In this document: positions 1-28,941 of the stretch, one piece after another | Numbering within the stretch: the stretch's first letter is position 1 | How the letters are laid out: the number at the start of each line of letters is the position of its first letter | IMG/VR virus record: IMGVR_UViG_3300027971_000001 | Source: a virus | Lineage: Duplodnaviria; Caudoviricetes | Direction: 5' to 3' (one strand) | DNA length: 64,000 nucleotides | Program-made: the position numbers and the translations under genes | The notes under the pieces: model-generated | What the model was told of the DNA's origin: nothing | The model's input: only the letters and a program-made list of their open reading frames with translations | The model's database searches: none

Positions 1-1821
1 TGTCCGGTGCAGCGGGAAAGCTATTCTCTGGGTTCCATAACTTCACTAGAACTGGGAGAAAGCAAAATAGAATATGAGGAAAGCAATCTGTCTTCATTGG
101 CGGAGAAAAATTGGAAGCAATTCGTGGATTATAACATTCAAGACGTTAATCTTCTGGTTAAGCTAGAGGAAAAATTGCATTATTTGAGCATTCTTCGTTC
201 TCTTTCTCATGTAGGATTGACCAATCTTGAAACTGCCATGAGCACAATCAGTATTGTGGCGGGTGCAGTGGCTATTCAAGCCAAGAAAAACAAGAAAATT
301 ATACCCACCTTCCCACATAAAGAAGATGATGGAGTTACAATTGAAGGTGCATTTGTTAGTGAACCACAAAGAGGTTTTCATGATGCGGTTATCAGCTTTG
401 ATGCCAATTCACTCTATCCCAATTTGATTCGAACATGCAACATGAGTCCGGAAACAAAGGTGGGAAATCTTGAAAAACTAGACGACAAGACATTTTTACA
501 TCATGTAAATGGTAAAAAATATACGTTAACTGATGAAAAACTTAAAGTATTGATGGAAAAGGAAAATCTTGCTGTAACAAAGATAGGAACTTTGTTTAGT
601 CAAAAAGAAACAGGTCTTGTTCCTCAAATTATTGAAGAAAATTATAAAAAACGGGTGGATATAAAAAAGGAATTAAAGAAAATAAAGCGAGAACTGCTTA
701 ATTCTGAAAAAGATTCAGAAGATTATAAGGAAAAAAAGAAACGAGAATCCATCCTAAACAACAAACAATATGCCCTTAAGATTCTCATGAACAGTATCTA
801 TGGAGCATTTGCAAATAATTTCTTTTTTTTAAGTGATAGAGATGTGGCTAGAAGCATTACAGTCACAGGTCAAAGTGTAATCAAAAAAGGAAGTGAAATT
901 ATTGAAGAATTCTTTGTTAAAAATGGCATAGAAAAGGAATCATTAGAAAAGAACTCTCCAATGGTTTATGGAGATACGGATAGTTGTCACGTTTCAGTCA
1001 AACGGCTTCTTGAAAAAAATAATATAAAATTATTAAAGAAGGACAAAACTTTAAATTCCGACGCAGAAAAGGTTATTGAGAATCTAGAAAAATACATCAA
1101 TGAACAAATAACCTTTTGGGCTAAAAAGGAACTTAATAGCAATTCACCAAATCTGGAATTTAAACGGGAATCCATATGTGATGTGGCCATTTATATACAA
1201 AAGAAACGATATGTGCTTCATGTTATTGATGAAGAGGGTGTTCCTTGTGATAAAACAAAATATACAGGAATTGAAGTGGTTCGAAGCACCATGACCAAGC
1301 AAGTAAAAGAATTTAATAAAAAAATTATTGAAACCATGATACAAACTCGGGATCCATCTCAGACAAATATAATCCTAGAAAAGATTTATGAGGATTTTCA
1401 AACCAAAGATGAAAAAAATCTTTCATTTGTGGTGGGTATTAAGAATTATGAAAAGTATTCTGATTCATGTAATGAACTGATGACAGTAAAAGGAATGCCT
1501 GTACATGTTAAGGCAGCTTATTATTATAATTATTTTCTTAAAAAACAGTCTTTGTTAAAAAAACATGAAACCATAACAAGCGGAGACAAGATTCAATATT
1601 ATTATGTGCAACAACCAAATCAATTTGCCATTTCAGTTATGGCATTCAAAAATCGTCTTCCAGATGAAATCAAAGAATTGTTTCCCATGGACAAAGAAAA
1701 GCAATTTGAAAAGCTTGTTTTGGAAACAATGAGAAAAATTTTTGAACCGGTAGGATGGGAAATACGAGAACCAGGAAAAATGAACTATGCTAATCTTGAA
1801 TTACTTTTTTCTGACGAGTAA
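1..1821 (+). CDS. gp43: Family B DNA polymerase, C-terminal part (5' end lies upstream of the window)
   Basis: Motifs DANSLYPNLI (A), KILMNSIYG (B), YGDTDS (C), KKRY and KYTGIE. Frame is open from base 1, so the GTG at 7 is internal. Confidence 0.97.
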   Translation, partial: CPVQRESYSLGSITSLELGESKIEYEESNLSSLAEKNWKQFVDYNIQDVNLLVKLEEKLHYLSILRSLSHVGLTNLETAMSTISIVAGAVAIQAKKNKKIIPTFPHKEDDGVTIEGAFVSEPQRGFHDAVISFDANSLYPNLIRTCNMSPETKVGNLEKLDDKTFLHHVNGKKYTLTDEKLKVLMEKENLAVTKIGTLFSQKETGLVPQIIEENYKKRVDIKKELKKIKRELLNSEKDSEDYKEKKKRESILNNKQYALKILMNSIYGAFANNFFFLSDRDVARSITVTGQSVIKKGSEIIEEFFVKNGIEKESLEKNSPMVYGDTDSCHVSVKRLLEKNNIKLLKKDKTLNSDAEKVIENLEKYINEQITFWAKKELNSNSPNLEFKRESICDVAIYIQKKRYVLHVIDEEGVPCDKTKYTGIEVVRSTMTKQVKEFNKKIIETMIQTRDPSQTNIILEKIYEDFQTKDEKNLSFVVGIKNYEKYSDSCNELMTVKGMPVHVKAAYYYNYFLKKQSLLKKHETITSGDKIQYYYVQQPNQFAISVMAFKNRLPDEIKELFPMDKEKQFEKLVLETMRKIFEPVGWEIREPGKMNYANLELLFSDE

Positions 1822-16945: not shown

Positions 16946-17196
16946 TGAATAAAAGACCCAGCAACGATAATGATATTAAAGGAATTTATGAAAGTGATGT
17001 ACGCAATACCGGCATCATGAGTGCGCCGGATGCAAGCAAAATAAATCCAGGAATTAACCGGGATAGTGGAGCTAGCCAGAACATTTACACACCAAATGAC
17101 TATCGGATCGGGGAAAATGAAGAAGGTGAGAAAGAAAGCAAGGTATTGGAAGCGTTGAAAAAAATTAAAGAGATTTTAAATAATCTTGATCTATGA
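16945..17196 (+). CDS. Hypothetical protein (83 aa)
   Basis: TAATG coupling upstream, ATGA coupling to the GH108 gene; GATAAATA at 16928-16935. Confidence 0.7.
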   Translation: MNKRPSNDNDIKGIYESDVRNTGIMSAPDASKINPGINRDSGASQNIYTPNDYRIGENEEGEKESKVLEALKKIKEILNNLDL

Positions 17197-17726
17197 ATGA
17201 AATAAAAATCTCGGAAAATAAAAGTCCGGAATTTGAAACAGCCATGAAGTTTGTGCGGGAAGCAGAAGGTGGTTATTATAACCATCCAAATGATCCTGGC
17301 GGTGAAACAATGTATGGTCTTACCAAACGGGATTATCCTCTTTTTGATATTAAAAATCTGACAAGGGAACAAGCAGATGAAGTATTTTGGCAAGATTATT
17401 GGCTGAAAAGCAATGCTTATCTGATACCTTATCCTGCATATATTAGCTTTTTTGATAGCGTTGTGAACACAGGCAGAACGCAGGCCAATAAATTCCTGCA
17501 ACGTGTGGTGGGTGCTACTGCAGACGGTATTGTTGGACCATATACCCGCAGTCTAATGAGCAAAAAAGATCCTGTTGATGTTGCATATGGCATAATTGAT
17601 CAACGGCAAACATTTTATAATAATTTGGCAGAAAATCGTCCAAAATTATCAGTATTCCTCAAAGGTTGGACCAATCGCAACAAGAATCTGCGCAATTATA
17701 TTCAAAATCTTTTGAAAAACGCTTGA
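17193..17726 (+). CDS. Glycoside hydrolase family 108 muramidase with PG-binding C-terminus (endolysin candidate)
   Basis: EAEGGYYNHPNDPGGETMYGLT (EGG motif), FDSVVNTG, LQRVVG...DGIVGP.T and FLKGWTNR. Confidence 0.92.
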   Translation: MNEIKISENKSPEFETAMKFVREAEGGYYNHPNDPGGETMYGLTKRDYPLFDIKNLTREQADEVFWQDYWLKSNAYLIPYPAYISFFDSVVNTGRTQANKFLQRVVGATADGIVGPYTRSLMSKKDPVDVAYGIIDQRQTFYNNLAENRPKLSVFLKGWTNRNKNLRNYIQNLLKNA

Positions 17727-17771
17727 GTTTTTTTATCAAAAGATAAATATTATTAACAAAACAAATACTAT

Positions 17772-17819
17772 TTTGTAAAGATTACCTTTACAAACTTTTT
17801 GACCTGTTATAATCAGGTC
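17772..17819 (+). promoter_or_regulatory. Two tandem inverted repeats overlapping a sigma70-like promoter TTTACA-15-TATAAT
   Basis: TTTGTAAAG/CTTTACAAA (17772-17794); GACCTG/CAGGTC (17801-17819) with TATAAT in the loop. Confidence 0.55.
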
Positions 17820-17827
17820 TCCTTATT

Positions 17828-18418
17828 ATGAAAAAAACCATCTTAGCCACAGCTTTAGCCCTGACCCTAGTAAACGGGTTTTCAGATATTTCAGTTCCGC
17901 CTAAAAAAGGTTTGCAACCAAATCTAACAAGCACTGAATTCAAAACATTCATGGGTGATGTCAGTAAACTTACCCGAAGCTATAGTAGTGGGGTTTGCGC
18001 CAAGTTCACAACTGCTCTTTTGGACAATCTTCATGAACGCAATGAAAAAGCTTTTCCTCAATTGGATCTTAGGGAAGGTGGGATTGTTAAAGGAAGAGCA
18101 GGTCGGCAAACATATCCAATCACCACATCCAGCAACGAGATAATTTACGCCAAAAACTATAAAACAGTGTTTCAAAGTCGTAAAGATTTTGAAAAAATCA
18201 CTCAAAATGATGTGTTAAACTTGCCTGAAAACACACTTGTTATTGCTGTATACCAACCAAAAAGTTCAGGCAGACCAGGTCACATAGAAGTTATTTTTAA
18301 AAGAAATAACAGGCTATATGCAGCATCAGATAAGCTTGACAAACCCATGTTTTTTTGCAATAAACTCTACAAACAAGTGGACTTCTATTATCCAATAAGA
18401 GAGGATAGGCAATCATGA
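17828..18418 (+). CDS. Signal-peptide protein with NlpC/P60-CHAP-like Cys/His motifs (putative amidase/peptidase)
   Basis: N-terminus MKKTILATALALTLVNG; SSGVCAKFTTAL (Cys) and GRPGHIEVI (His). Confidence 0.6.
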   Translation: MKKTILATALALTLVNGFSDISVPPKKGLQPNLTSTEFKTFMGDVSKLTRSYSSGVCAKFTTALLDNLHERNEKAFPQLDLREGGIVKGRAGRQTYPITTSSNEIIYAKNYKTVFQSRKDFEKITQNDVLNLPENTLVIAVYQPKSSGRPGHIEVIFKRNNRLYAASDKLDKPMFFCNKLYKQVDFYYPIREDRQS

Positions 18419-18900
18419 AAAAAATAGCATGTTTGATGATTATTGCCGGAATATTATATAATATTATTCAGCAAACCAAAGAAAAAGCCATAATCAATCC
18501 AGTTGATAATGTGATTTGTTCTGGAATGACTAAAATGGCTGATGATTTTGTAAAGAAATTGGTTGTTGAAAAGACTGTAAAGGTTCGATTAACAACATAT
18601 TGGGCAAAAGGTGGAGAAACTGATAAGGATAGCGCAAAAAAGCATAGCTATACAGGAGCCACATTAAAAGAAGGGGTGAGTGTTGCAGTCGATCCTCGTC
18701 TAATCCCCTTCTTTAAGCGTTTATACATACCAAATTTAGGGCTTAGAGTGGCTCATGATACAGGAACAGCAGTTAAGGATAAAAAGGCAAGTAAGGGTAA
18801 ATTGCCTGTTATAGACGTATTTTTTGAAAAAAAGAAGGATGCCATGGAATTTGCATACAATGGACCTAAAATAGTCACAGTTAGCATTTATAAATACTAA
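18415..18900 (+). CDS. 3D-domain (MltA-like) protein with N-terminal signal anchor
   Basis: VRLTTYW, VAVDPRLIPF, AHDTGTAVK and VIDVFF supply the three Asp; hydrophobic N-terminus IACLMIIAGILY. Confidence 0.85.
   Translation: MKKIACLMIIAGILYNIIQQTKEKAIINPVDNVICSGMTKMADDFVKKLVVEKTVKVRLTTYWAKGGETDKDSAKKHSYTGATLKEGVSVAVDPRLIPFFKRLYIPNLGLRVAHDTGTAVKDKKASKGKLPVIDVFFEKKKDAMEFAYNGPKIVTVSIYKY
18889..18896 (+). promoter_or_regulatory. T4-type late promoter TATAAATA
   Basis: Exact consensus, 5 nt before GTG 18902. Confidence 0.7.
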
Positions 18901-18901
18901 T

Positions 18902-19423
18902 GTGCGTTTTAACGAACTTATAAATGAAATAATAGGGGATTTACCCCCACCTCCTCCTGCAATAATTCAAAAAGCAGAAGCTGCCATCAAATATAGCGAT
19001 ATAGTAGCGGCTGCTCTTATCGGTGAAGCAGGTGGTGAAGGTGAAAAAGGAATGCAAGCTGTCATGAATGTAATCATGAACAGGGTAAAAGATGGTGATC
19101 CTTTCCGGGGTGCTGTGAATATTGTTTTAAAACCCAAACAGTTTAGTTTTTTTAACAAATACAATGATGGAACAGAAAAAATGGGAGATATTATAAGCAA
19201 AGCCACTAAACATCCTAATTGGGCCAAAGCAAAAGAGCTGGCCCTTGTTGGAATGCGGGGAAAACTACAAGATATTACAGACGGAGCTACACACTATCAC
19301 GTGACAAGCGGACCCAGCAAAGTGTCTCCTAAATGGAGCAATCCTAAATTTGGAGGAAAAAATCCCGAAGCTTCAGCGACCAACACGATTGGCCATCACA
19401 CGTTTTTTACGAACATTAAGTGA
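18902..19423 (+). CDS. SleB/Hydrolase_2-family cell wall hydrolase
   Basis: GEAGGEGEKGMQAVMNVIMNR, KQFSFFN, GATHYH and IGHHTFF; TATAAATA 5 nt upstream. Confidence 0.9.
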   Translation: MRFNELINEIIGDLPPPPPAIIQKAEAAIKYSDIVAAALIGEAGGEGEKGMQAVMNVIMNRVKDGDPFRGAVNIVLKPKQFSFFNKYNDGTEKMGDIISKATKHPNWAKAKELALVGMRGKLQDITDGATHYHVTSGPSKVSPKWSNPKFGGKNPEASATNTIGHHTFFTNIK

Positions 19424-21616: not shown

Positions 21617-23937
21617 CCACCAACAATCGGATCATTTGGTGGATTGCTGTCCTTGATGTTATAGGCATTGTTCTGCGGTGCAGCCACAACCCTGTCCGTA
21701 TTATTGCAAGCTTGAGCCACGTTACGAACATTCTTATTTTCTGGAAGCAGATTAAGAGGTATATTTTTAAATAAATGACTGTGACTATATGTAAACAAGC
21801 AATTTTCATCTGAAATATTGTTACAAGGAGTTTTACTCCAAACAATACCCCAACCATTACAAATACTTGCTCCAGGTTGCACATAACCAATAATTTTAGC
21901 ATCAATCGTATTAGTTTGACCATACACAAAACTCTTTTCAGTTTCCTGAATTTCTACAGGAGCAGTGATATGGTTGACTGTGAGTTCTCCTTCAATATGG
22001 GCACCTCCTCCTACTACTAAATTGCGACTAACACCCAAACTAGAATCTACCATTACCTGTTCATAATTACGTTGACGCAAAACCAGAATGTCACTGGTTA
22101 TAACTGTGCGGTTACCTCCATCAATATTCAATTCATATTGAGCACCTATATTCACTTGTTGTCCGGCCATGGTGGTTATGGTTCCACTCATTTCTATAGG
22201 TCCTAGGGTTTTTACGCTAATCCCTCCTGCACCCACTTGTAATGTATAACGATTACATGCATTAACTGTATAATTTCCACCAGGAAGATCATCAACATGT
22301 ACAGGTTCAATCAAAGGACTGGATTTTTGATTTTCAAATACGCCCAATTCACCCACTTGAACTTTATAATTATATATTTTTCCTTCTGTGTCGATACGAA
22401 TTGAACCAAAATCATTCATGACTTGACCAATCATATCAAATTTGTGTTTGGGTATTTCTGTAACCAAACTACCCCCAGTACCCAAACTTTCTTCAATTTT
22501 ACCCAATTCGACTATTTTTTCTTTATAAAGCTGTTCGAGTTTCTTTTTTTCTGGATTTTCCTCCCATTTACCATCCATGCTGCTTGGACTTAATTTTTGT
22601 CCTTTACAAACAGGACATTGATTAGGAGCAGGGAATGCAATAAGTTGACCATCTTGTTGTTTTCCTTTTGGATCAACTGTTTGATATTGATCTACACCAT
22701 TACTTCTGAATGTTACAACGGGAATAACTACTTGATTAAATTTGTTATTAACTGCGTAATATTTTCTATCTTTTGAACAAACAGGACAAGGTCCAGGGTT
22801 TCCTTTTTGTTTTTGATTGGTAGAACTTATCCTATTTGGATCACCGTCTTTTTTCTTGGTACGATCAATTTCAAACAATTGTTTAAGATCTGCTATAGGA
22901 TCCATCTGAGTCTTCCATTGTTGCTGATGTTGAGGATCCTGATTTCCTATTTTAAAATAATAATTACCTTTGACCACGATATCTAAATCACCCCCGACGT
23001 AAAGACTATTATTACCTTTTACAGTTGTGAATTTGTCGGCCAGAACCAATTGTTGATCATTTTTTACAGATAATCTACTTGTTGTTGCATTATTAAATTC
23101 CAAAAATGATCCTGAATAGTGTGTAAATTTTAAAACCTCTTTCAAATCTGTGTTTACAAATTCAATTGTTCCGCCTTTTTGAGACATGACCATTTTGTTT
23201 CTGTAAGTTTCAGCATCACTTTGCTGGACTTTCAATTCTGAATTATTTTTGTCCAGATTTTCATAAGCACCCGGATAATCTTCTGCCACTCCATAATCAT
23301 CCTGATATATTCCTTGCCAAGCTGCTTGACCAAAACTTACAGCCCAATAAACAGGACGCATGGGATTTCCATCATAAAAGAATACCCAAACATGTGCTCC
23401 CACATTAGGAACACTGAATAAACCTTTAGCCCTGTTACTGTAACAGCTGGGAACATATCCGTAAGAATTTGGATTTACGTGGGCAACATTATTGGCTGGT
23501 GCAGAATTGAATGCATCGCTTAATTTTACCGCTTTTCTTTCCAATACATTTCCTGGTTTTTCACCAATACCATCTGTATTTTGACTGAATTCTGTTGTTT
23601 GAAAATCCTTTTGAGGTTTGCAAGTATCAATAAAGCTACTGTCGCTTATCGAACCAAATTTTTCTGTTGCATTATATCTTCCGCTTGCTGCTCCTCCAAA
23701 CAAAGGCATGGCACAGTCCGACCAAGGAAGAATCTTTTTAAGATCGTCCAAAATATCATTTAAACTGCTGTTAAGATTTTGACCTATGAAATTAAATTCT
23801 TTATCTACTTTTACTTCATTCCATTTATTGTAAACAGTGGAAGTAACGTGAGGAACAAATATCTTGAGTCTTCCTCTTTGTTCTGGGTCATTGTTTTGTA
23901 CAACTATACCTAAATATTGACCATCATATCTTTTCAT
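21613..23937 (-). CDS. gp5: Baseplate central spike, gp5/VgrG-like, lacking a lysozyme domain
   Basis: OB-fold GIVVQNNDPEQRGRLKIFVP...VPNVGAHVWVFF.DGN; HYSGSFLE and V-x-G beta-helix repeats; C-terminal HSH. Confidence 0.85.
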   Translation of the reverse strand: MKRYDGQYLGIVVQNNDPEQRGRLKIFVPHVTSTVYNKWNEVKVDKEFNFIGQNLNSSLNDILDDLKKILPWSDCAMPLFGGAASGRYNATEKFGSISDSSFIDTCKPQKDFQTTEFSQNTDGIGEKPGNVLERKAVKLSDAFNSAPANNVAHVNPNSYGYVPSCYSNRAKGLFSVPNVGAHVWVFFYDGNPMRPVYWAVSFGQAAWQGIYQDDYGVAEDYPGAYENLDKNNSELKVQQSDAETYRNKMVMSQKGGTIEFVNTDLKEVLKFTHYSGSFLEFNNATTSRLSVKNDQQLVLADKFTTVKGNNSLYVGGDLDIVVKGNYYFKIGNQDPQHQQQWKTQMDPIADLKQLFEIDRTKKKDGDPNRISSTNQKQKGNPGPCPVCSKDRKYYAVNNKFNQVVIPVVTFRSNGVDQYQTVDPKGKQQDGQLIAFPAPNQCPVCKGQKLSPSSMDGKWEENPEKKKLEQLYKEKIVELGKIEESLGTGGSLVTEIPKHKFDMIGQVMNDFGSIRIDTEGKIYNYKVQVGELGVFENQKSSPLIEPVHVDDLPGGNYTVNACNRYTLQVGAGGISVKTLGPIEMSGTITTMAGQQVNIGAQYELNIDGGNRTVITSDILVLRQRNYEQVMVDSSLGVSRNLVVGGGAHIEGELTVNHITAPVEIQETEKSFVYGQTNTIDAKIIGYVQPGASICNGWGIVWSKTPCNNISDENCLFTYSHSHLFKNIPLNLLPENKNVRNVAQACNNTDRVVAAPQNNAYNIKDSNPPNDPIVGG

Positions 23938-23940
23938 ATA

Positions 23941-25731
23941 TTATGTATTTCCTGCTGCTTGTAGTAATTGTTGTGCGGATGGATTCTTAAACTGTTTGTA
24001 TCCGGATGGATAATATGCCACTTGCTTTCTTCCTTTTACAATTTCAACATTTTGTGCATAAACACCACTTTTAGGAGGTTGTACAGTTGCTGATTGTGTT
24101 TTTCCTCCTGCAAGAACATTTTTTTCAAAATTCAATCTTGATTGCTCCGTATCAAAATATATATCAACTGTTGCTGTTTTTACCTCTTGTGGTTCTTTAT
24201 TTTCATCTTTTAAACGAATAACGCTTCGCACACTATTAGTATTTCGTCTATTTTTACGAAATACGCCCTGACCTTCCCGATCCATATCCCGTCCACTTGT
24301 ATTTCCTTCAATTGTTGTAAAACTACCATCAGAATTAACTGTTTCAACGATTCCAGTATGGCTATAATTATAAGTTATAATATCTCCGGGTTGAAGTGGT
24401 TTTTCACCAGGCCGAAATATTTCAGCATTACCATTTCTTGCAAAATCTTCCATTCCGTATGCCCTCATGGTTGCTGGTGCAGGTGTGTTGGTTCCTGCAG
24501 TTGCTTGCTGTGTAACTGCACTAACAAAACCTGCACACCATGGTTGACCTTGTGAACCTCCTCCTGCAGAGAAAAATGGATTTAATTGTGACCCTGTATT
24601 ACTGCTTGCATTTTCTGTAACACCCAAATAACTTTGTGCAGCAGTCACAGTTCGAGCACCAACGGAGCTTCCATTCTTAAAGTCAGGATTACTTGGATAA
24701 TATGATTGTGATCCGTCTCCTTTTACAATTCCCCTTTGCCTTGCTGCTGTTTGTTTCACAACATCTGAACCGGTATCCATTGCCACACGAACTCCAATTG
24801 CCGGATTGTCAAAAACAATTTTACTTCCATATGGAATGATTGAAGGATCCACAGCACAGCTTTGACCTTCAACAAGATTTTTTTCTCCGGTTGAACTATC
24901 CTTTTTGGCAGTCCATTCATCTCCTCCTTTTCCTATGGCTTCTTTTGCACCGTATGTTGTTACCACTGCATTAATACGAAAATCATTAGGAGAAACGGCA
25001 TTTGGAACAACAGGTCCTGCTTTTACTTGTGTATTATCTCCTCCTGTTTTACTGGATGCATAACTTTGTGCATTTTGTTTGGTCTGATTGCTGATATTAG
25101 CCGCAGCTATAGATTCACTTCTTTGACGGAATTTAGTAAATGATTGTGTGTCTACTGACAAATCCCTTATTGTTTTTGGGGAAAGGTTTGAAGGAACACT
25201 GGTTTGTATGGAATTCAACAATGAACTTATGTTGGAAACATTCTGTATTCCTTGCAGATTGTTTGTGACCTGGCTTTTTGCAAAATTAAAATTGTTTGTG
25301 TTTATATTGGCAAATTGAGAAAATGTATTGGAAAAAATACTTTGAATATCAACTTCACCTCCGGCAAAATTAGGAATAGGGAAATTGTTTCCTAGATAAG
25401 ATTGGACAATACCCTGTAATTGATTGGTTATGTCCAATCCTTGTGTTACATTTTGTATGGTTTGATCTAATATTTGAGGTGATGGCAATTGTGGAAGAAA
25501 GTCAGTTATAGGAAGATAGTCTTTAATATTTCCAAATTGCATTCCAAAATTGCTCATATTGGAAAATTGAGGTGGCAATTGAACTGAACCGAATATTTGT
25601 TCTGGATTTAATTGGGAAAGTTGCTGCGAAATATCATCAAAAGATGGAACAGATATGATCTTTTTTAGCTGTTTAAGATTCATTTCCGGAGCTAATTTTG
25701 TTAATAATGCCGGTGGAATATCATCTGCCAT
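23941..25731 (-). CDS. Virion-associated lysin: Q/N/S-rich N-terminus, then a 3D domain interrupted by a CHAP domain
   Basis: VVTTYG, CAVDPSIIPYGSKI, AMDTG; then QPWCAGFVS, PGDIITYNYSHTGIVE, IEGNTS; then VDIYFD. Immediately upstream of gp5. Confidence 0.85.
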   Translation of the reverse strand: MADDIPPALLTKLAPEMNLKQLKKIISVPSFDDISQQLSQLNPEQIFGSVQLPPQFSNMSNFGMQFGNIKDYLPITDFLPQLPSPQILDQTIQNVTQGLDITNQLQGIVQSYLGNNFPIPNFAGGEVDIQSIFSNTFSQFANINTNNFNFAKSQVTNNLQGIQNVSNISSLLNSIQTSVPSNLSPKTIRDLSVDTQSFTKFRQRSESIAAANISNQTKQNAQSYASSKTGGDNTQVKAGPVVPNAVSPNDFRINAVVTTYGAKEAIGKGGDEWTAKKDSSTGEKNLVEGQSCAVDPSIIPYGSKIVFDNPAIGVRVAMDTGSDVVKQTAARQRGIVKGDGSQSYYPSNPDFKNGSSVGARTVTAAQSYLGVTENASSNTGSQLNPFFSAGGGSQGQPWCAGFVSAVTQQATAGTNTPAPATMRAYGMEDFARNGNAEIFRPGEKPLQPGDIITYNYSHTGIVETVNSDGSFTTIEGNTSGRDMDREGQGVFRKNRRNTNSVRSVIRLKDENKEPQEVKTATVDIYFDTEQSRLNFEKNVLAGGKTQSATVQPPKSGVYAQNVEIVKGRKQVAYYPSGYKQFKNPSAQQLLQAAGNT

Positions 25732-27447: not shown

Positions 27448-28941
27448 TTAGAAGTAGACGCTCTGTGTGGCAGGTGTGAACGGCTGACCCAGACCAACGA
27501 CAATAATGACGTGGTAGTACAGGTTAGCCCCGAAGATATTATCCACAACGCCGTAACGAGTCATCAATCCAACGCGAGGCGAGAAGTCGTTAGGACCAAT
27601 CGTTCTCTGGACGAGGACTGGGATGTACGGGCAATAGATGATACCTGTGTCGTAATACTCCGGACCCTTGTACCCGAGTAGTGCATACTCGAGGCGGGTG
27701 CTACGCTGCGGGTTAGTGAGAGTTCCCGGATATGCTCCGAGGTTCTCAGCCTGCGCGTCTGTGCGTGTATCACGATACACATTAAACCGACCACCGAGAT
27801 TTCCAACCTTGGAAACGCCAACAGGTTGAGTGTTGACATTGCCTTGGACGGGAACCCACTGGAATTCAGGAAGCATTTCCAATATGGCGCAAACGCGAGG
27901 TGTTGCAACAATGAAGTTGGCAGCACCACGACGGTTACGAACCGCAATGCGGTTAGCTTCGATGATTAGTCTCTGGTAGAAGTCACGATTACGTTCAACT
28001 AGCCAGCGACCATCAGCGGAAGCGGGAGACCATACGGAATATCCTGATCCGAAGCCAGCATTGAGGGCAACCTGAATCATACGAATGATCATCTCACGGT
28101 CAATTTCTGCCTGTAGCTCATAGCTCATAGCATTTGTCAACTCGGTGTCGATGTCGATACCATTCATATTCTTCAAGTCTTGTTCAAGCTCTACGGACCA
28201 GCGAGCAGCAAGCCTACGGGTTCCTGCTTCGACTGCAGTTTTCTCGAAAGAAACTTCAATCTGAGGAATCTTACCGGTAAGTTCGAAGTTACCCAGGATC
28301 TGAGCAACACCCTGATCGGTGCCGAGCATTGTGAATTGATCATAATACGGCTGCGAAGGGGATGCGCCAGAGAGCTGAGAAGACGAAGTACCAGTATAAC
28401 GGGTGTCAAGGAGTTGATATCCAAGTTCAGCACCGTTAGAAGGATTGGCAGGTGTTATGGCGGCATTTGCGTTAGTTCCGCTACCGTCAACGCCAGAATT
28501 ACCCAATTGTTTATTGAGGTACTTATAGCGAAGAGCGAAAGCAAGACCGACGGGACCACTCATAGGTTGAACACCTACTATCTCGTTGGTGATTAGTTCG
28601 GGGAATGTACGACGAATCATCGGGATCAGAATCTTGGGCAGACGTGCATCTCCCTTAGCATAGTCGTCACCAGCGGTGATCTTGCCAGGGGGATTGAACG
28701 AAGCTCCAATAGATGTACCTGAACCGAAAACACCACCGCTAGCGGCAGTGTTATCTTCATTAACCATGCACCATTGCTCTTGGTTTTCCAAAAGCATGGC
28801 GGTGTTGAGACGTGTGTGATCGTCTTCGATAGCCCGGACAGAATCCGAGGTATAATCGAGGACGGGTGCCCACTTCTCTAGAAGGGTTTTAGCGCGACTC
28901 TGATTGATGTAACTCGTGGGAGGAGCGATACGCTTACTCAT
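27448..28941 (-). CDS. gp23: Major capsid protein
   Basis: LLEKWAPVL, ILIPMIRRTFPELITNEIVGVQPMSGPVGLAFALRY, RRLAARWSVELEQDLK and YCPYIP; SD AAGGAG upstream. Confidence 0.98.
   Translation of the reverse strand: MSKRIAPPTSYINQSRAKTLLEKWAPVLDYTSDSVRAIEDDHTRLNTAMLLENQEQWCMVNEDNTAASGGVFGSGTSIGASFNPPGKITAGDDYAKGDARLPKILIPMIRRTFPELITNEIVGVQPMSGPVGLAFALRYKYLNKQLGNSGVDGSGTNANAAITPANPSNGAELGYQLLDTRYTGTSSSQLSGASPSQPYYDQFTMLGTDQGVAQILGNFELTGKIPQIEVSFEKTAVEAGTRRLAARWSVELEQDLKNMNGIDIDTELTNAMSYELQAEIDREMIIRMIQVALNAGFGSGYSVWSPASADGRWLVERNRDFYQRLIIEANRIAVRNRRGAANFIVATPRVCAILEMLPEFQWVPVQGNVNTQPVGVSKVGNLGGRFNVYRDTRTDAQAENLGAYPGTLTNPQRSTRLEYALLGYKGPEYYDTGIIYCPYIPVLVQRTIGPNDFSPRVGLMTRYGVVDNIFGANLYYHVIIVVGLGQPFTPATQSVYF

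Follow-up and report, generated by a model that had tools for sequence, protein, structure and literature searches.

The stretch of DNA analysed here, 64,000 nucleotides of the virus record IMGVR_UViG_3300027971_000001 (Duplodnaviria; Caudoviricetes) that we call the window, carries a gene whose 596-aa product, P0001, consists of an N-terminal domain, a 3D domain split in two, a CHAP peptidase domain lying between the two parts, and a C-terminal tail (Table 1). The stop of this gene overlaps the start of the neighbouring gene for a gp5-like central spike by 5 nt (23937-23941). The unusual arrangement was first noticed in an earlier reading of the letters alone (hereafter the sequence-only reading), which placed it at 24150-24975, corresponding to aa 253-528 of P0001, and proposed that insertion of one domain into another had created a glycan- and peptide-cleaving enzyme at the spike. 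We find that CHAP does lie wholly inside the 3D domain, that the 3D barrel is predicted to close around it, and that syntenic relatives carry at the same site an unrelated segment predicted to be another kind of peptidase.

Table 1. Parts of the split 3D/CHAP gene, its key residues, and other features of the window discussed in the text.
Feature	Positions	Strand	Basis and remarks
Whole gene P0001, 596 aa	23941..25731	(-)	Single unbroken open reading frame (ORF); N-terminal domain, split 3D with nested CHAP cassette, C-terminal tail; Pfam and PHROGs
N-terminal domain, aa 1-234	25030..25731	(-)	S/Q/N-rich; alignments of orthologs
3D domain, first part, aa 235-335, ends ...AARQRGI	24727..25029	(-)	Pfam 3D; free-3D profile; pLDDT 76-87; YuiC/MltA superposition
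Asp1, D295, in AVDPS	24847-24849	(-)	
Asp2, D319, in AMDTG	24775-24777	(-)	
Inserted cassette, aa 336-517 (182 aa): linker, CHAP, linker	24181..24726	(-)	CHAP-bearing, YkuD-bearing and insert-less orthologs compared, protein and DNA
CHAP peptidase/amidase core, aa 361-512	24196..24651	(-)	Pfam CHAP; PHROG endolysin families; VIA structure matches
C399, in QPWC	24535-24537	(-)	
H458, in SHTG	24358-24360	(-)	
E475, in IEGNT	24307-24309	(-)	
N477, in IEGNT	24301-24303	(-)	
3D domain, second part, aa 518-555: Asp3 strand, helix, final barrel strand	24067..24180	(-)	Insert-less ortholog alignment; free-3D profile; pLDDT 73-84; YuiC/MltA alignments
Asp3, D523, in TVDIYF	24163-24165	(-)	Catalytic position
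C-terminal tail, aa 556-596 (...YYPSGYKQ.KNPSA..LL)	23944..24066	(-)	Kept in insert-bearing orthologs (alignment)
gp5-like central spike gene (P0003), 774 aa	21613..23937	(-)	Pfam Phage_base_V; PHROG 430; OB domain and beta-helix
Free 3D paralog P0002, 161 aa, comparator	18415..18900	(+)	Unbroken Asp2-Asp3 hairpin of 19 aa; N-terminal hydrophobic segment
Wall-hydrolase cluster, four genes	17193-19423	(+)	Includes a GH108 lysozyme
Mtd_N and Collar protein, 384 aa	19627-20781	(-)	Could be a receptor-binding fibre
gp23-type major capsid protein	27448-28941	(-)	Pfam E 1e-88
ORF of 410 aa	54260-55492	(-)	Candidate gp27-like hub
Tape-measure-like gene, 628 aa	55495-57381		

A CHAP domain nested within a 3D domain

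Pfam recognizes essentially the whole CHAP profile in P0001 (PF05257 at aa 393-477, E 1.1e-10, 42.3 bits against a cutoff of 26, profile positions 3-81 of 81) and a 3D domain that stops partway (PF06725 at aa 291-325, E 4.4e-5, 24.0 bits against a cutoff of 23.8, profile positions 2-41 of 72), just as the sequence-only reading had forecast when it expected such tools to report CHAP or a broken 3D. PHROG families of endolysins also match the CHAP part, at 1e-14 to 3e-11. An independent hidden Markov model (HMM), made from 89 uninterrupted 3D proteins only, matches P0001 in two complementary pieces (full-sequence E 6.5e-32), with model positions 26-119 falling on aa 234-334 (independent E-value 2e-30) and positions 122-156 on aa 518-555 (independent E-value 0.004, 6 bits). 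The 3D profile is thus broken in the loop between the strands that carry the second and third of its three Asp residues. These two residues, Asp2 and Asp3, are 204 aa apart in P0001 and 19 aa apart in the free 3D paralog of the same window, P0002, which bears out the earlier remark that the paralog beginning at 18415 has just a short loop there.

All of the motifs originally named are present in the unbroken ORF and in the order given: TTY (aa 258-260), AVDPS with Asp1, AMDTG with Asp2, then QPWC, SHTG and IEGNT of the CHAP domain, and finally TVDIYF with the Asp at the catalytic position, the 3D domain resuming at K518. In alignments D295, D319 and D523 fall on Asp1-3 of the insert-less orthologs and of free 3D proteins. 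The CHAP residues C399, H458, E475 and N477 are intact and line up with Cys and His in free CHAP proteins; the E-x-N of P0001 we take to be the equivalent of E134/N136 in LysK. The one point of the original description that needs amending concerns VDIYF, which had been called the last 3D strand: there is indeed a strand after the insert, but it is not a single one, since aa 518-555 comprise the Asp3 strand, a helix and a second barrel strand. More than 20 protein clusters, drawn from independent contigs of JGI, ENA, Logan and IMG/VR, show the same nested architecture, and among the 157 3D-containing proteins that we compared the split 3D is confined to this clade.

Predicted structure of the interrupted barrel

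We modelled aa 235-560 of P0001 with AlphaFold, and also aa 236-549 of P0014, an ortholog with the other type of insert described below. The P0001 model has a mean predicted local distance difference test score (pLDDT) of 57.8 and the P0014 model one of 81.9, with predicted template modelling scores of 0.47-0.54. In P0001 the 3D part ahead of the insert reaches pLDDT 76-87 and the part behind it 73-84, and the post-insert strands lie at 73-90 across the models of both variants. After the insert, the P0001 model has a strand at 284-292 (model numbering) that contains D523, a helix at 295-304 and a strand at 312-317. Comparison by VIA-align placed this model on YuiC (4wlk_B) with Z 8.9, a root-mean-square deviation of 2.9 Å and 92 aligned residues, model 12..304 lying on chain 79..177, and on MltA (2pi8_C) with Z 7.7 and 110 aligned residues, model 3..317 lying on chain 35..333; for P0014 the corresponding values are Z 8.9 over model 5..296 for YuiC and Z 7.8 over 2..310 for MltA. 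The aligned residues number only about 100 in a span of about 300, and the target ranges extend through D162 of YuiC and as far as the C-terminal end of MltA, so the alignment has to skip the insert and resume in the post-insert strands. Model residue 289, which is D523, lies 15 residues before the end of the range, as does D162 of YuiC, a placement that is read from the ranges rather than residue by residue and is consistent with the register of Asp3. Whether the split strands close the double-psi beta-barrel (DPBB) was the structural question left by the sequence-only reading, and the models predict that they do, with YuiC and MltA superposing across the insert at Z 7.7-8.9.

For the nested domain itself the comparison gave matches to the CHAP domains of PlyGRCS, PlyPy, LysIME-EF1, LysGH15 and LysK, at Z 6.4-6.8 over model 153..282, with the N-terminal half of CHAP modelled at pLDDT <50. 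A Foldseek search with the P0001 model gave weak matches only (best E 1.3e-3), which we attribute to the presence of two domains in the model and to the low confidence of part of it. Querying the ESM Atlas and BFVD with the P0014 model returned no model with the whole nested architecture, insert and barrel being matched separately. An alignment-based profile search of the PDB found neither YuiC nor MltA; only Pfam 3D and structure comparison reveal the kinship with these two proteins.

Orthologs without the insert

Relatives lacking the insert, which the sequence-only reading had thought worth searching for, turned out to be plentiful. A word index combined with an exhaustive HMMER profile search of 1.8 billion representatives recovered about 17 clusters of insert-less orthologs of 345-400 aa (including P0063, P0064, P0067-80, P0107, P0140 and P0156), which share the N-terminal domain of P0001 and have their 3D domain in one piece; an example is P0071, where DTGGAVKARTASSGTVPIIDLFF spans the Asp2-Asp3 hairpin unbroken. 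The insert is present in only two clusters at 50% identity. The N-terminal domain is kept in all orthologs, with the motif LSPKQIRDL near aa 183-191 of P0001, and is presumed to be a docking or structural part.

As insert-less orthologs exist and the two halves of the 3D domain are predicted to form one YuiC/MltA-like barrel together, P0001 has arisen by domain insertion, and we regard it as confirmed that this is a true insertion, with CHAP wholly inside the 3D domain. One might still ask whether the arrangement is an assembly chimera, or an ordinary tandem of truncated 3D and CHAP followed by a chance VDIYF-like motif, given how weakly the post-insert piece scores by itself against the 3D profile. 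Such an artefact is effectively refuted by the recurrence of the architecture in so many clusters, from independent samples and assemblers, by the homology of the post-insert segment over about 40 residues to the contiguous C-terminal part of 3D in the insert-less orthologs, and by the modelling of that segment as barrel strands that superpose on YuiC and MltA.

A second cassette type at the same site

Eleven further orthologs (P0014-P0023 and P0065, 561-598 aa) have the same flanks as P0001 and, at the same site, an unrelated segment of 168-178 aa. Pfam assigns this alternative cassette to YkuD in P0014 and P0016 at 23.7-24.9 bits, against a cutoff of 23.4, with Tlde1_dom below its cutoff. 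In the P0014 model the insert matches Csd6 (Z 10.8), Pgp2 (10.4), LdtMt2 (10.1), YkuD (9.5), and Tlde1a and DpaA (both 9.1), and its His and Cys are invariant in the 11 orthologs as well as in 12 free modules. On the strength of these models the alternative cassette is predicted to be an L,D-peptidase of the YkuD/Tlde1 fold.

The two cassette types occur in loci that are otherwise closely similar. Synteny between the window and the P0014 locus extends over more than 15 kb, with the shared order gp23, three small genes, AAA_28, the 3D/cassette gene, gp5-like, Mtd_N/Collar fibre, Hydrolase_2, 3D, a gene of about 200 aa (196 aa in the window) and GH108. When the DNA of CHAP-bearing P0013 (L011) is compared with that of YkuD-bearing P0014 (L006), identity is 70-87% in the flanks and neighbouring genes and drops to background, 24-46%, across the roughly 600-nt cassette only; it peaks at the cassette borders, in the 3D core, where at 85-87% it marks the best conserved DNA of the locus. 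The junctions, ...A-A-R-x-R-G-I before the cassette and K-T-x-T-V-D-I-Y-F after it, are identical in both types.

We then built a maximum-likelihood tree from the flanks only, with inserts removed and insert-less orthologs as the outgroup. Its basal insert-bearing lineages (P0065 and P0018-23) carry YkuD, and the YkuD-bearing P0014, P0015 and P0017 fall inside the CHAP clade, as sister to the CHAP-bearing P0012 and P0013 (98/95) and then P0011 (99/97). A single CHAP clade is rejected by the approximately unbiased test (delta lnL 30.3, p = 0.0017). Judged by these flanks, at least two cassette exchanges are needed whatever the rooting, and the most parsimonious course is from YkuD to CHAP and back to YkuD in one sub-lineage. 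A scan of IMG/VR found five CHAP loci, five YkuD loci and one insert-less locus, and no third cassette type among these 11 loci.

We tentatively speculate, while thinking it somewhat less probable than its negation, that the Asp2-Asp3 hairpin has evolved into a reusable cassette slot, at which co-circulating phages swap CHAP and YkuD-like modules in frame by recombination in the flanks and so retune which peptide bond is cut beside the glycan-cleaving site. If so, the cassette would be a determinant of host range or penetration at the level of peptidoglycan, and the slot a natural template for engineering nested two-site lysins.

The YkuD-like module is also found outside this family. Strong free homologues (E 1e-38 to 1e-21) lie in multidomain proteins of 411-1226 aa without any Pfam hit (P0082, P0085, P0090, P0094, P0099, P0127, P0133, P0135, P0167, P0179, P0197 and P0198), and the Atlas and BFVD tie the fold to DUF5675, to cyanophage tail-lysozyme and to proteins of the tape-measure type. 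It is a widespread and unannotated L,D-peptidase module of phages.

Linkage to a spike without lysozyme

The 3D gene lies directly upstream of a Phage_base_V gene of 767-859 aa in eight of nine loci, the exception being P0063 (L001). Four of the adjacent loci are insert-less (P0071/L002, P0069/L007, P0140/L008 and P0070/L009) and the rest bear an insert, CHAP in the window and L011 and YkuD in L005/6 and L010. A profile of seven gp5-like spike proteins searched against the PDB matched only the beta-helix of T4 gp5 and the OB domain of VgrG, and no lysozyme domain was found in the gp5-like protein of the window (P0003) or its six orthologs by Pfam, PHROGs or PDB sequence search. The suggestion that the nested enzyme replaces the gp5 lysozyme is therefore half right: the neighbouring gp5-like protein does lack the lysozyme domain, but it was not the insertion that replaced it, because insert-less orthologs hold the same place. 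By the same token, 3D proteins were paired with a lysozyme-less gp5 before the insertion took place, so that the insertion gave a peptidase to a 3D protein that was already linked to the spike. Gene adjacency in these loci and structural matches to hub enzymes (see below) lead us to infer that P0001 is a penetration enzyme associated with the spike or hub. A complex prediction for residues 1-345 of the gp5-like protein with aa 1-240 of P0001 scored 0.00 with the partner at pLDDT <50, and gives no verdict either way.

It is also conceivable that P0001 is a non-virion enzyme of lysis from within, either an endolysin or an exported autolysin-like protein, and that its position next to gp5 is incidental. 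The PHROG families that match its CHAP part are annotated as endolysins, and bifunctional endolysins are common. We consider this improbable, however, since P0001 has a conserved, non-enzymatic N-terminal domain of 234 aa and no signal peptide or transmembrane segment was found in it, since the overlap or abutment with the spike gene is kept in orthologs down to about 25% identity, catalytically dead ones included, and since a separate cluster of four hydrolases, with a GH108 lysozyme among them, is available for lysis. A reading of P0001 as a tape measure was rejected, as the window has a separate tape-measure-like gene and the insert-less orthologs are too short for a tail ruler; that gene, the gp48/54-like genes and the wedge genes lie elsewhere in the window.

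The spike protein has features of its own. In P0003, a region of about 200 aa between the first beta-helix segment and the distal helix contains invariant C-P-x-C / C-x-x-C pairs (C384/C387 and C441/C444), and a zinc knuckle within a gp5-like spike looks unusual. Near the C-terminus there is an invariant Y-x-H-x-H (Y717, H719, H721) that resembles the metal-binding H-x-H apex of other piercing spikes.

Several neighbouring genes are also of interest. The wall-active tandem on the other strand encodes a GH108 protein with PG_binding_3, a 196-aa protein of no family, the free 3D protein with its N-terminal hydrophobic segment and a SleB-type Hydrolase_2, and all four genes are kept in the syntenic relative L005/L006. 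The protein with Mtd_N and Collar domains, which could be a receptor-binding fibre, is encoded about 0.8 kb downstream of the spike gene, past two small ORFs, an arrangement kept in relatives. Right after the tape-measure-like gene there is an ORF without Pfam or PHROG match that is, by position and size, a candidate for a gp27-like hub. The gp23-type major capsid protein is 32-34% identical to those of the closest cultured T4-like phages, mostly cyanophages, and no cultured phage exceeds 34%. The lineage is deep-branching, T4-like and known from metagenomes only, on contigs of freshwater origin.

Catalytic residues and a model for wall opening

In YuiC and MltA the catalytic carboxylate is D162 and D308, respectively, and D151 (YuiC) or D297 (MltA), 11 residues from the catalytic Asp, binds the -2 sugar (PMC4499186). 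Asp3 of P0001, D523, corresponds to D162 and D308, and these assigned roles place the cassette in the active-site hairpin. Asp1 and Asp2 are near-universal in the family. On balance, we favour the view that P0001 is a bifunctional enzyme, with residue conservation pointing to both a glycan-cleaving and a peptide-cleaving activity.

Taking these lines together, we propose the following model, to which we assign a probability of about 0.7. The family consists of the N-terminal domain joined to a 3D domain (a DPBB of the MltA/YuiC type), encoded immediately upstream of a lysozyme-less gp5-like spike. The hairpin between the substrate-binding Asp2 strand and the catalytic Asp3 strand has become an insertion slot, from which a peptidase cassette of about 182 aa leaves and re-enters the barrel on two flexible linkers, with the barrel closed and all three Asp retained. 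In the phage of the window this cassette would be a CHAP Cys-His peptidase or amidase and in close syntenic relatives an L,D-peptidase of the YkuD/Tlde1 fold, the cassettes having probably taken each other's place at least twice, through recombination in the conserved flanks that code for 3D. P0001 would travel with the baseplate hub or spike, and during tail penetration its two tethered active sites would open the peptidoglycan locally, the 3D groove working as a lytic transglycosylase on the glycan strands and, a few nanometres away, the nested peptidase cutting stem peptides or cross-links. The type of cassette may be matched to the wall chemistry of the host.

Several observations weigh against this model. 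In the P0001 model the low-confidence N-terminal half of CHAP has no alignment depth, and the relative position of the two active sites is not fixed by the model. The closure of the barrel is read from structural-alignment ranges, aligned counts and pLDDT, not from model coordinates. For aa 1-240 of P0001, neither a family nor a gp27-like hub fold was matched in Pfam, PHROGs or the Atlas. A tblastn search of 50,697 cultured-phage records yielded no full-length relative of P0001, P0014 or the insert-less P0071, its matches being confined to free 3D domains in Bacillus-type phages. Of the 19 insert-less orthologs 11 have no Asp3, which means that the family does not cleave glycan throughout. Finally, P0065, a YkuD-bearing metagenomic protein of 562 aa, has lost all three Asp (Asp1 deleted, Asp2 changed to Glu, Asp3 to Lys) and has kept the His and Cys of its cassette.

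These last two observations mean that the 3D part can be a non-catalytic scaffold in this family, and they raise the possibility that it is so in P0001, the barrel being mainly a structural or peptidoglycan-binding module of the spike that presents the nested CHAP as the only catalytic site. Orthologs without Asp3 keep the gene and its place beside gp5 (P0069/L007 and P0140/L008, for instance), and within the CHAP clade the cassettes are more conserved than the flanks (83-86% versus 71-79%). On the other side, the 20 other insert-bearing members besides P0065 have Asp1-3 and the TTY motif intact, the 3D core beside the cassette is the very DNA that is best conserved in the locus, and structural homologues with the triad (YuiC, MltA and the diffocin lobe discussed below) are active or described as lytic transglycosylases. 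We therefore regard a scaffold-only barrel in P0001 as unlikely, though it is the more serious of the alternatives, and retain the two-site model. The barrel of P0065, for its part, looks like a natural 'scaffold-only' barrel.

Comparison with known systems

The double-psi barrels of YuiC and MltA (PF06725; PDB 4wlk, 4wjt, 2pi8, 2ae0) resemble the 3D part of P0001 in fold (Z 7.2-8.9), in the three Asp and in the Thr/Tyr on the first strand, but their Asp2 and Asp3 are 11 residues apart in a tight hairpin, whereas in P0001 they are 204 apart with a whole enzyme between them. MltA has an additional domain inserted in its barrel, which reportedly sits at the place of the short 97-110 loop of YuiC and contains no second enzyme, with the MltA boundaries said to be those of van Straaten et al. 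2005. That extra domain corresponds to a YuiC loop upstream of Asp1, a different site from that of the P0001 cassette (PMC4499186).

Among contractile-tail hubs, the diffocin hub-hydrolase CD1368 (8v3w chain H; PMC11329794) combines a DPBB lytic transglycosylase lobe (residues 338-458) with a Cys-His peptidase, and the 3D part modelled here matches this lobe at Z 8.1 (8v3w_H, chain 333..462). For CD1368 its authors propose the role of 'scissors' that cut both glycan and peptide bonds during penetration (PMC11329794). In CD1368, however, hub, transglycosylase and NlpC/P60 are arranged in tandem and not nested, a gp27-like hub is fused to the enzymes, the peptidase is NlpC/P60 and not CHAP or YkuD, the target is Gram-positive, and no exchange of cassettes has been described for it. 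In the baseplate hub of the cyanophage A-1(L), a myophage, gp15 (8kea; PMC10966104) likewise has a DPBB ('endoglucanase', residues 266-430; Z 6.2 between 8kea_A and the P0001 3D model) and a peptidase, and both domains were shown to lyse host cells (PMC10966104); there the extra domains decorate the hub barrel protein, and DPBB and peptidase are about 300 residues apart with neither interrupting the other.

The tail lysozyme gp5 of T4 is a presumed functional analogue, in that a wall-degrading activity is tied to the central spike, but T4 gp5 has its GH24 lysozyme within the spike polypeptide, whereas here the gp5-like protein has none and the enzyme is the product of a separate upstream gene, with unrelated folds. 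The CHAP lysins of phages K and phi812 (9eum, 9euf_E; Z 5.0-5.6) place CHAP on a hub protein of a contractile tail, as a terminal domain and not nested in a catalytic one. The cassette of the YkuD-bearing relatives shares with the L,D-carboxy- and endopeptidases Csd6, Pgp2, Tlde1a and DpaA the YkuD fold (Z 9.1-10.8) and a conserved His...Cys, and differs from them in its divergent sequence (Pfam E 1e-5 to 1e-2, at or below cutoff), in a His-Cys spacing of 9 and in being nested in 3D.

Novelty and significance

A DPBB glycan cutter together with a peptidase on tail hubs, CHAP on tail hubs (phi812/K) and an extra domain in the MltA barrel are thus already known. What is new is, first, a complete second enzyme placed inside a 3D domain, after Asp2 and before the catalytic Asp3; second, the alternation of two unrelated peptidase folds, exchanged at least twice, between the same junctions of genes that are orthologous and syntenic; and third, an unannotated 3D family that accompanies lysozyme-less gp5 spikes in an uncultured and deep-branching lineage of T4-like phages. 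In the literature that we searched we found no prior description of a nested 3D/CHAP protein or of domain insertion in phage wall hydrolases. Such proteins are under-reported by routine domain annotation: for most family members the precomputed result is PF05257 only or nothing.

Phage lysins are a textbook case of modular evolution by end-to-end shuffling of domains. Here, by contrast, one enzyme domain is swapped inside another, at the very hairpin that bears the catalytic residue of the host domain, and the barrel is predicted to remain intact. The site is a natural, repeatedly used and insertion-tolerant position in a DPBB/3D domain, with defined junctions, that should be useful for engineering tethered dual-activity muralytic enzymes. 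For the phages themselves, a family of such enzymes linked to spikes without lysozyme suggests how uncultured T4-like phages breach the cell wall.

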